The notes under the pieces: model-generated
Seen by the model: only the letters and a program-made list of their open reading frames with translations
The model's database searches: none
Told to the model about the DNA's origin: nothing
DNA from: Escherichia coli
GTDB taxonomy: Bacteria > Pseudomonadota > Gammaproteobacteria > Enterobacterales > Enterobacteriaceae
Assembly: GCF_016903815.1 (NCBI RefSeq)
Contig: NZ_CP069973.1
Strand: one strand, 5' to 3'
DNA length: 64,000 bases
Shown here: positions 8,193 through 8,900 of the stretch, in pieces
Position numbering within the stretch: position 1 is the first letter of the stretch
How the letters are laid out: every line of letters begins with the position of its first letter
Made by a program: the position numbers and the translations under genes

Positions 8193-8900
8193 TGCACAGA
8201 AAACCCCCAGCTAGGCAGGGGGTTCCGGAAAGCTTTCAGCTTTGAGCCAGTTATTAAAACCCCTTTTGATTTGTTAAAACACCTTGCGGTCTGGCAACTG
8301 CAAGTGTCAAACAAGAAATCAAAAGGGGGTCCCAATGGGGAACGAAAAGAGCTTAGCGCACACCCGATGGAACTGTAAATATCACATAGTTTTTGCGCCA
8401 AAATACCGAAGACAGGTGTTCTACAGAGAGAAGCGTAGAGCAATAGGCAGTATTTTGAGAAAGCTGTGTGAGTGGAAAAGCGTACGGATTCTGGAAGCTG
8501 AATGCTGTGCAGATCATATCCATATGCTTGTGGAGATCCCGCCTAAAATGAGCGTATCCGGGTTTATGGGATATCTGAAAGGGAAAAGCAGTCTGATGCT
8601 TTACGAGCAGTTTGGTGATTTGAAATTCAAATACAGGAACAGGGAGTTCTGGTGCAGAGGGTACTACGTCGATACAGTGGGTAAGAACACGGCGAAGATA
8701 CAGGATTACATAAAGCACCAGCTTGAAGAGGATAAAATGGGAGAGCAGTTATCGATTCCCTATCCGGGCAGCCCGTTTACGGGCCGTAAGTAACGAAGTT
8801 GGATGCAAATGTCAGATCGTGTGCGCCTGTTAGGGCGCGGCTGGTAAGAGAGCCTTATAGGCGCATTTGAAAAACCTCCGGCTATGCCGGAGGATATTTA
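8193..8900 (+). mobile_element. IS200 insertion sequence, about 0.7 kb (boundaries approximate)
   Basis: Contains a Y1/HUH transposase gene; left-end hairpin (aaaacccccagctaggcaggggg), a long-range pairing cccttttgattt / aaatcaaaaggg that would sequester the tnpA Shine-Dalgarno, and a right-end hairpin cctccggctatgccggagg. The secF-yajD interval is IS-free in K-12 as I recall. Confidence 0.8.
8335..8793 (+). CDS. tnpA: IS200 transposase TnpA (Y1 HUH transposase)
   Basis: 152-aa protein MGNEKSLAHTRWNCKYHIVFAPKYRRQVF...HIHMLVEIPP...GYYVDTVG with HUH motif and catalytic-Tyr region. Confidence 0.9.
   Translation: MGNEKSLAHTRWNCKYHIVFAPKYRRQVFYREKRRAIGSILRKLCEWKSVRILEAECCADHIHMLVEIPPKMSVSGFMGYLKGKSSLMLYEQFGDLKFKYRNREFWCRGYYVDTVGKNTAKIQDYIKHQLEEDKMGEQLSIPYPGSPFTGRK

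Follow-up and report, generated by a model that had tools for sequence, protein, structure and literature searches.

A complete IS200C copy in the T-tract of the secF terminator of Escherichia coli and the placement of IS200-like elements just past terminator-like hairpins

The plus-strand segment 8192-8902 of the window, i.e. of the whole stretch of 64,000 nucleotides of Escherichia coli DNA (contig NZ_CP069973.1) that was analyzed, is, on the strength of its sequence, a complete 711-bp copy of IS200C, an element of the IS200 group within the IS200/IS605 family. The explanation that best covers the data as a whole is that this complete copy entered the T-tract of the secF terminator by peel-and-paste transposition, that its effect on the neighboring genes is probably small and that its site is typical of the group; we hold this joint reading to be very probable (about 0.93). 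The copy is ordinary and already known, the same insertion being recorded in the public RefSeq annotation. Indeed, an 801-bp region is 100% identical to loci of the secF-yajD spacer annotated in RefSeq as 'IS200/IS605-like element IS200C family transposase', and the identical locus is annotated for strain 7/2, with a concordant annotation of secF. Identity with the IS200C reference was judged by proxy, from loci that PGAP names 'IS200C family' (TnpA WP_000526135.1) and not from the ISfinder sequence. The other IS200C copies named by PGAP differ from the window copy at 2-12 of the 711 positions, and in a comparison of ten copies the window copy showed only two private differences, a T-to-A change at 8217 and a synonymous T8544. 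An earlier note on this DNA had proposed an IS200 element of about 0.7 kb at 8193-8900. Its size and type agree with the 711 bp measured and with the IS200C annotation of RefSeq; its ends were nearly right and are corrected here to 8192-8902 by means of the K-12 empty site and of independent copies. All the parts that it described were located in the sequence, within 1-3 nt of its coordinates (Table 1).

Table 1. Coordinates of the IS200C copy, its parts and its surroundings in the window
Feature	Position	Strand	Basis
secF (upstream neighbor)	7169..8140	+	Pfam SecD_SecF_C 1.6e-70; RefSeq annotation of strain 7/2
secF intrinsic terminator, target site	8160..8191	+	fold; K-12 alignment
IS200C element	8192..8902	+	K-12 empty site; ends common to independent copies; 100% identity with annotated IS200C loci
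Left-end hairpin	8202..8224	+	Rfam RF01405, fold; terminator-like site on minus strand
Putative art200 antisense RNA	8254..8343	-	position inferred from PMC4513863 description and sequence
tnpA 5'UTR stem-loop	8260..8328	+	fold z-score -3.78; Rfam RF01405 structure
tnpA, 152-aa Y1 HuH transposase	8335..8793	+	Pfam Y1_Tnp; alignment to solved homologues
Right end, with hairpin CCTCCGG-CTATG-CCGGAGG (8875-8893)	8875..8902	+	terminator-like on both strands (simple scan)
Last T of the split tract (8903) and 76-bp native yajD upstream region (8904-8979)	8903..8979	+	identical to K-12
yajD, HNH nuclease family (downstream neighbor)	8980..9327	+	Pfam HNH 1.1e-12; annotation

In K-12, the secF-yajD spacer is 128 bp long and is an empty site without the element. 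It reads CGGGA, eight Ts (TTTTTTTT) and GATGTATGG, whereas the window reads CGGGA, seven Ts (TTTTTTT), the 711 bp, a single T and GATGTATGG. According to this alignment, the insertion point lies between the 7th and the 8th T of the secF T-tract and there is no target duplication. The secF terminator, composed of an A-tract, a 13-bp stem and an AGAA loop (8160-8189) and of a T-run (8185-8191), keeps its stem and seven of the eight Ts of the K-12 tract, and the 45 nt upstream of IS200C, which include this terminator, fold at -17.7 kcal/mol. The element begins at the very next base after the T-run, as implied by the position directly after the secF terminator that had been given in the earlier note. 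Furthermore, independent copies (pgm, cspB, galU, plaP, sseA, carB and plasmids) share the sequence from GTGCACAG to ATATTTATT and diverge outside it. The K-12 empty sites of galU and pgm are reconstructed exactly and without duplication, those of carB and sseA to within one T. The same data bear on the converse case, which the earlier note had also considered, namely that the region is colinear with the secF-yajD DNA of K-12, with a native tnpA-like ORF and no insertion at all, and on the related idea of an ancient domesticated gene in this spacer. K-12 is empty at this place and the 711-bp insertion is present in the window; K-12 and about 98% of the complete E. coli genomes have no such ORF in the spacer, and near-identical copies (2-12 differences in 711 bp) are found at unrelated loci and on plasmids. 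Native DNA is thus refuted by the empty sites, no evidence was found in its support and its probability is close to nil.

The element has no terminal inverted repeats, its ends (GTGCACAG... and ...ATATTTATT) not being inverted copies of each other, and it carries one subterminal hairpin at each end, at 8202-8224 (left) and 8875-8893 (right). tnpA is the sole long sense ORF of the 711 bp delimited by the flanks of the empty site, and no tnpB is present there. The earlier note had announced a complete Y1 transposase gene, and the product of this ORF does match the full Pfam domain Y1_Tnp ('Transposase IS200 like', E = 3.8e-38). It also matches the solved IS200-family transposases 2ec2, 2f5g, IS608 2a6m and ISDra2 2xm3 (E = 4e-23 to 1e-15). 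Its HuH motif H61-I-H63 and its motif Y125-IKH-Q129 (YIKHQ, a YIxxQ motif) align with those of the solved homologues and, by analogy with Y127 of IS608 (PMC3597680), Y125 is probably the catalytic tyrosine. This TnpA is identical to WP_000526135.1, and the same protein is encoded at many other loci and on plasmids.

The left part of the element has the regulatory anatomy described for IS200. The minimum free energy fold of 8192-8350 (z-score of -3.78, none of 200 shuffles being as stable) contains three features: the hairpin 8202-8224, a small hairpin at 8229-8243 and a long stem-loop, in which CCCCUUUUGAUUU (8260-8272) and AAAUCAAAAGGGG (8316-8328) form a lower stem of 13 bp. The 3' arm of this lower stem covers AAGGGG of the Shine-Dalgarno sequence (AAGGGGGU / AAGGGGGT, 8323-8330), the ATG being located at 8335. 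The earlier note had drawn the stem arms over the Shine-Dalgarno sequence at about 8260-8275 and 8317-8330, a position with which the fold agrees within a few bases, and had taken them for the translational control structure expected in IS200. The published anatomy bears this out: counted from 8192, the left hairpin occupies nt 11-33 and the Shine-Dalgarno stem-loop nt 69-137, compared to nt 12-34 for the terminator hairpin and nt 69-138 for the stem-loop of Salmonella IS200 (PMC4513863). The left-end hairpin of IS200 is a bidirectional transcription terminator and the presumed TnpA-binding hairpin; in Salmonella, this terminator halts about 85% of the incoming transcripts and the Shine-Dalgarno stem-loop represses translation about 20-fold (PMC4513863, PMC5435999).

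The Rfam model of the IS200 left end, RF01405, matches 8202-8325 on the plus strand with 141 bits, for a gathering score of 56. This STnc490 model matches the sense strand of tnpA, including the left-end terminator hairpin, and it seems to model the sense strand. [quoted passage not shown] Since the match is on the sense strand and art200 is antisense, the match was used only as evidence of homology to the left end of IS200. A putative antisense promoter consists of a -35 box TTTACA (8379 to 8374) and a -10 box CTAAGC (8356 to 8351) separated by a 17-nt spacer; the promoter reported for the 90-nt art200 has a good -35 box and an almost unrecognizable -10 box (PMC4513863). Two other Rfam matches, Ysr202 and AaHKsRNA41, were dismissed, being far below their gathering scores and covering terminator hairpins only.

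At the right end, the hairpin is directly preceded by GAAAAA and followed by a 9-nt tail, ATATTTATT, and it is conserved in the copies of Yersinia and Edwardsiella. In Vibrio marinisediminis (L047), the right end shows a compensatory double change, CCACCGG...CCGGTGG compared to CCTCCGG...CCGGAGG in E. coli and Yersinia, which supports a structural role of this hairpin. An A-run lies just 5' of each hairpin (AGAAAA before CCCCC on the left, GAAAAA before CCTCCGG on the right), at the position of the guide sequences of the family (PMC6006769), and T-rich sequence is found both in the left flank (TTNTT) and at the terminus of the right end (TTATT). These A-runs and T-rich flanks would fit a guide-target pairing of the family type.

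In IS608 and ISDra2, TnpA binds subterminal hairpins on one strand and excises this strand as a circle. [quoted passage not shown] By extension of this family mechanism, IS200C would have entered the secF-yajD spacer by single-strand peel-and-paste transposition. The Y1 HuH TnpA would excise the top strand as a circle and join it 3' of a short, single-stranded T-rich sequence (TTNTT). At this locus, the intrinsic terminator of secF would have offered its T-tract as the target, with joining between T7 and T8 and no duplication. Once inserted, the element would be kept quiet, as indicated by the literature on Salmonella IS200, by (i) the left-end hairpin/terminator, (ii) the 5'UTR stem-loop that buries the Shine-Dalgarno sequence, and (iii) the antisense RNA art200, and the copy is fixed in one E. 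coli lineage.

The GC skew is positive, +0.027 over the whole window and about +0.05 around the element. In K-12, secF is located at 0.43 Mb on the + strand and therefore in the clockwise replichore, an assignment that rests on the known positions of oriC and of the terminus in MG1655. Taken together, the skew and the K-12 position of secF indicate that the top (+) strand of the element corresponds to the lagging-strand template. Judged from the sequence, this orientation appears to fit the targeting known in the family (PMC5027513). Among the six E. coli sites whose strand was checked in K-12, five follow the lagging-strand rule, the exception being sseA. The IS200 copy found after the sseA terminator in E. 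coli O166:H15 and O7:H15 (L010 and L012) is divergent, with 31 differences in 711 bp; this older copy overlies the timR region of K-12. At its K-12 position of 2.65 Mb, the top strand of this copy is the + strand, i.e. the leading-strand template, contrary to the lagging-strand rule.

As a pattern, the choice of sites next to terminators is typical of the IS200-like group; the mechanism that it suggests is more conjectural. The first eleven E. coli IS200C sites examined, a sample biased by its BLAST ranking, were all located after a hairpin and a T-run. Since this ranking favored T-run flanks resembling those of the query, these eleven sites were replaced by a scan independent of the flanks, based on an exact 22-mer inside the left-end hairpin and carried out on representative genomes of about 100,000 species. 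It revealed 120 loci with 118 distinct upstream contexts, originating from Yersinia pestis (IS1541), Vibrio ruber, Brenneria, Edwardsiella, MAGs labelled Mailhella, Desulfovibrio, Bacillota and Oxalobacter, and others. A context was considered as terminator-like if it displayed at least 4 G-C pairs, a dG <= -10 kcal/mol and a T-rich tail <=11 nt. This is the case of 112 of the 118 contexts (95%) compared to 10.6% of the background TTNTT sites in the same loci, figures to be read with a criterion devised after the first sites had been seen and with contexts that come from a few multi-copy genomes (43 or more from one Y. pestis strain), whose lineages are not independent. Within the window, the terminator-like share of the non-coding TTNTT sites is 15.8%. 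Positions -1, -2 and -5 of the junction are occupied by T in 81%, 97% and 96% of the 118 contexts, respectively, and most of them have a TTNTT-like left flank, the commonest pentamers being TTTTT, TTTTG, TTATT and TTGTT. Two other ways of detecting terminators were rejected: a first criterion (dG <= -8, T-rich 7-mer) was too lax, 23-31% of the TTNTT sites passing it, and a perfect-stem detector was too strict, as it missed five of eleven obvious hairpins with G-T pairs or bulges.

In Y. pestis, one copy was found directly after the right end of another one (...CCGGAGGATATTTATT joined to GTGCCCAG...), and the right end of the element itself therefore serves as a target. Head-to-tail arrangements were seen at two loci of Y. 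pestis NCTC5923 (L097, 2660-3391, and L099, 12604-13335), where the distance between left-end motifs of the same strand is 710 bp; the junction read in L097 shows a right end that abuts the next left end with no spacer.

From these observations, we tentatively propose that the elements of the IS200 group may actively recognize intrinsic terminators as copies of their own right end, an idea to which we give less than an even chance. Right end and terminator would be alike in that a guide-like A-run is followed by a GC hairpin and then by a T-rich tail, 6-10 nt long, whose final TT is the cleavage site. The choice of target would then depend on DNA structure, beyond a tetranucleotide as in IS608, and each insertion would rebuild a terminator-like site. 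The exposed T-tract could alternatively be provided by the non-template strand of an RNA polymerase paused at the terminator, as opposed to the replication fork. If true, such structure-dependent targeting would explain both the head-to-tail tandems of Y. pestis and the small effect on the neighbors. The presence of terminators upstream of these elements is not new. [quoted passage not shown] The reading in which the target copies the right end is a proposal of the present analysis; a literature search on IS1541 with terminators gave no match.

The pattern could also be the work of purifying selection only, with insertions occurring at random in T-rich sequences and survivors being found in neutral spots past terminators without any active recognition. 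Sites past a terminator should rank among the least harmful ones, the above preprint sees upstream terminators as contexts favoring persistence (10.1101/2025.07.22.666184), and a study of ST38 genomes noted merely 'T-rich regions' (PMC6963479). However, 95% of the 118 contexts are terminator-like compared to about 11% of the background TTNTT sites, and the position of the junction is exact to the base. Other non-coding TTNTT sites are plentiful, only 16% of those of the window being terminator-like, and the spot occupied in the Y. pestis tandem has the same architecture although it offers no obvious selective advantage. Selection against harmful insertions must also contribute to the distribution of sites, and it is unlikely to be its only cause. 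As for active recognition of terminators, the base-precise placement suggests a testable rule for the choice of safe sites by the smallest autonomous insertion sequences, and a terminator-targeting rule would explain why IS200-like copies rarely disrupt genes. In this respect, the secF-yajD locus itself matters little; the wider placement pattern is more useful, as a modest lead.

It should also be mentioned that the exact 22-nt left-end hairpin of IS200 occurs in MAGs labelled Oxalobacter, Peptococcaceae, Bacillota, Mailhella, Desulfovibrio, Saccharibacteria and Elusimicrobiaceae (L022-L045, L049-L052, L056-L063, L077-L085 and L089-L093), often close to the end of a contig (about 100 nt or less). 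In these copies, the first 12 nt of the element vary by group (GTGAAACG..., GTTAAAAG... or GTATGAAG...). The occurrence of this hairpin across phyla could result from extreme conservation, horizontal spread or mis-binned contigs. Left ends identical to that of IS200C (GTGCACAGAAAA followed by the hairpin) were also found in Pluralibacter gergoviae (L048) and at L087 and L088 (Brenneria roseae), but about 700 bp further on, where the right end of an IS200 would be expected, none was seen; these three loci could be remnants of a left end or else composite elements of greater length.

Judging from the anatomy of the insertion, a large effect on yajD is unlikely, and little change is expected unless yajD needs read-through from secF, because the 76 bp upstream of yajD are kept and the right-end hairpin with its T-rich tail replaces the displaced terminator. 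This GC hairpin and its T-rich tail sit at the former position of the terminator, MAFFT having aligned the two. The simple scan that found the right end terminator-like missed the secF terminator because its rule on loops was 3-8 nt. Three hairpins now lie between secF transcription and yajD. A sigma-70 consensus scan of 8050-9450 gave no site and placed neither a yajD promoter nor a tnpA promoter, and a literature search on yajD yielded no promoter data. The earlier note had thought an altered yajD expression possible, and a material change, either by loss of read-through from secDF (polar effect) or by an outward promoter, has to be weighed here. In its favor, 711 bp with two extra terminator-like hairpins separate secF from yajD, any contribution of read-through to yajD would fall, and the DNA beyond -76 of yajD is replaced. 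However, a strong terminator is already present in K-12, the 76 bp are kept in full, the right end resembles the hairpin and T-tail that were displaced, and no outward promoter was detected by the scan. Such a change is quite improbable, and the insertion is probably neutral for secF and yajD.

Each junction of the insertion, queried separately, was detected in 99 of the 5,426 complete E. coli genomes of RefSeq, always single and always chromosomal, the site being empty in all the remaining genomes. The insertion therefore marks one E. coli lineage and could serve as a marker for typing it. The label O102:H6, carried by one of the 99 genomes, is the serotype of the ST38 strains reported previously (PMC6963479); it is a lead on an ST38-type lineage and not a typing result. 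The genomes of the lineage carry 17-30 places matching the element. In the window copy, the private T-to-A change at 8217 creates an A8209/A8217 mismatch in the left-end hairpin, at a position where ten other copies and the Rfam consensus have T. The predicted RNA stability of this hairpin is -13.6 kcal/mol with A8217 compared to -18.7 kcal/mol. According to this prediction, A8217 could impair TnpA binding or termination and, since it weakens the hairpin, the window copy may not be mobile.

The copy might even be an immobile relic, structurally complete, whose sole activity, if any, would be that of its small RNAs (5'tnpA and art200) or of an extra insulator between secF and yajD. IS200 has been described as mostly or nearly dormant (PMC4513863), and an RNA derived from its 5'UTR regulates host genes of Salmonella (PMC4513863, PMC5435999). 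The private mismatch in the left-end hairpin points in the same direction, as does the junction, whose identity of at least 99% in 97 of the 99 genomes suggests stable inheritance. However, the presence of WP_000526135.1 at many loci and on plasmids argues for recent activity of this type of IS, the genomes of the lineage carry 17-30 places matching the element, and a 10-bp stem may well tolerate a single mismatch. We regard a mere relic as rather unlikely.

Comparison with known systems places the window copy closest to published descriptions of the IS200 group. The IS200C of E. coli ST38 strain 28Eco12 has the same TnpA and T-rich flanks, its copies measuring 707-714 bp in the table of the paper (PMC6963479). 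The regulation of Salmonella IS200 was presented in PMC4513863 and PMC5435999, after Beuzon et al. 1999. Salmonella IS200 has the same layout and the same coordinates, with the Shine-Dalgarno sequence AAGGGGGU and, upstream of the antisense RNA, a promoter whose -35 box is good and whose -10 box is poor, the putative counterpart of which is present in the sequence of the window copy; it differs by its size (707 bp compared to 711 bp for the window copy) and by its host, which is E. coli here. To our knowledge, the Salmonella target invF has no obvious equivalent in E. coli. IS1541 of Y. pestis shares with IS200C an identical 22-nt left-end hairpin, an identical right end (...CCTCCGGCTATGCCGGAGGATATTTATT) and the same preference for sites just past a hairpin and a T-run. 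Its first 12 nt, GTGCCCAG, are one base apart from those of IS200C, GTGCACAG, and its copy number is much higher, with head-to-tail tandems. IS608 and ISDra2, whose TnpA is homologous to that of IS200C, have in common with it the Y1 HuH type of this protein, the subterminal hairpins, the lack of duplication and the insertion 3' of a short sequence; a link to the lagging-strand template has been reported for them (PMC5027513, PMC6006769). However, they carry tnpB, recognize TTAC or TTGAT and have no reported need for a hairpin at the target, whereas IS200C is devoid of tnpB, targets a T-rich TTNTT and is found almost only beside terminator-like hairpins.

The window contains a second element of the IS200/IS605 family, of about 1.75 kb (10954-12703), which splits the lipoprotein gene yajI into two fragments located on the minus strand (10547-10834 and 12645-12893). 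Its Y1 tnpA gene, on the minus strand, is frameshifted (10918-11106 and 11158-11436); its tnpB gene, on the plus strand (11452-12609), is intact and encodes a 385-aa protein with the Pfam domains OrfB_IS605, Cas12f1-like TNB and HTH. The empty site of yajI in K-12 reads TTTCTTGAT followed by TGAGTT, the insertion lying between the two, and this second element ends with ...GGATGTCAA.
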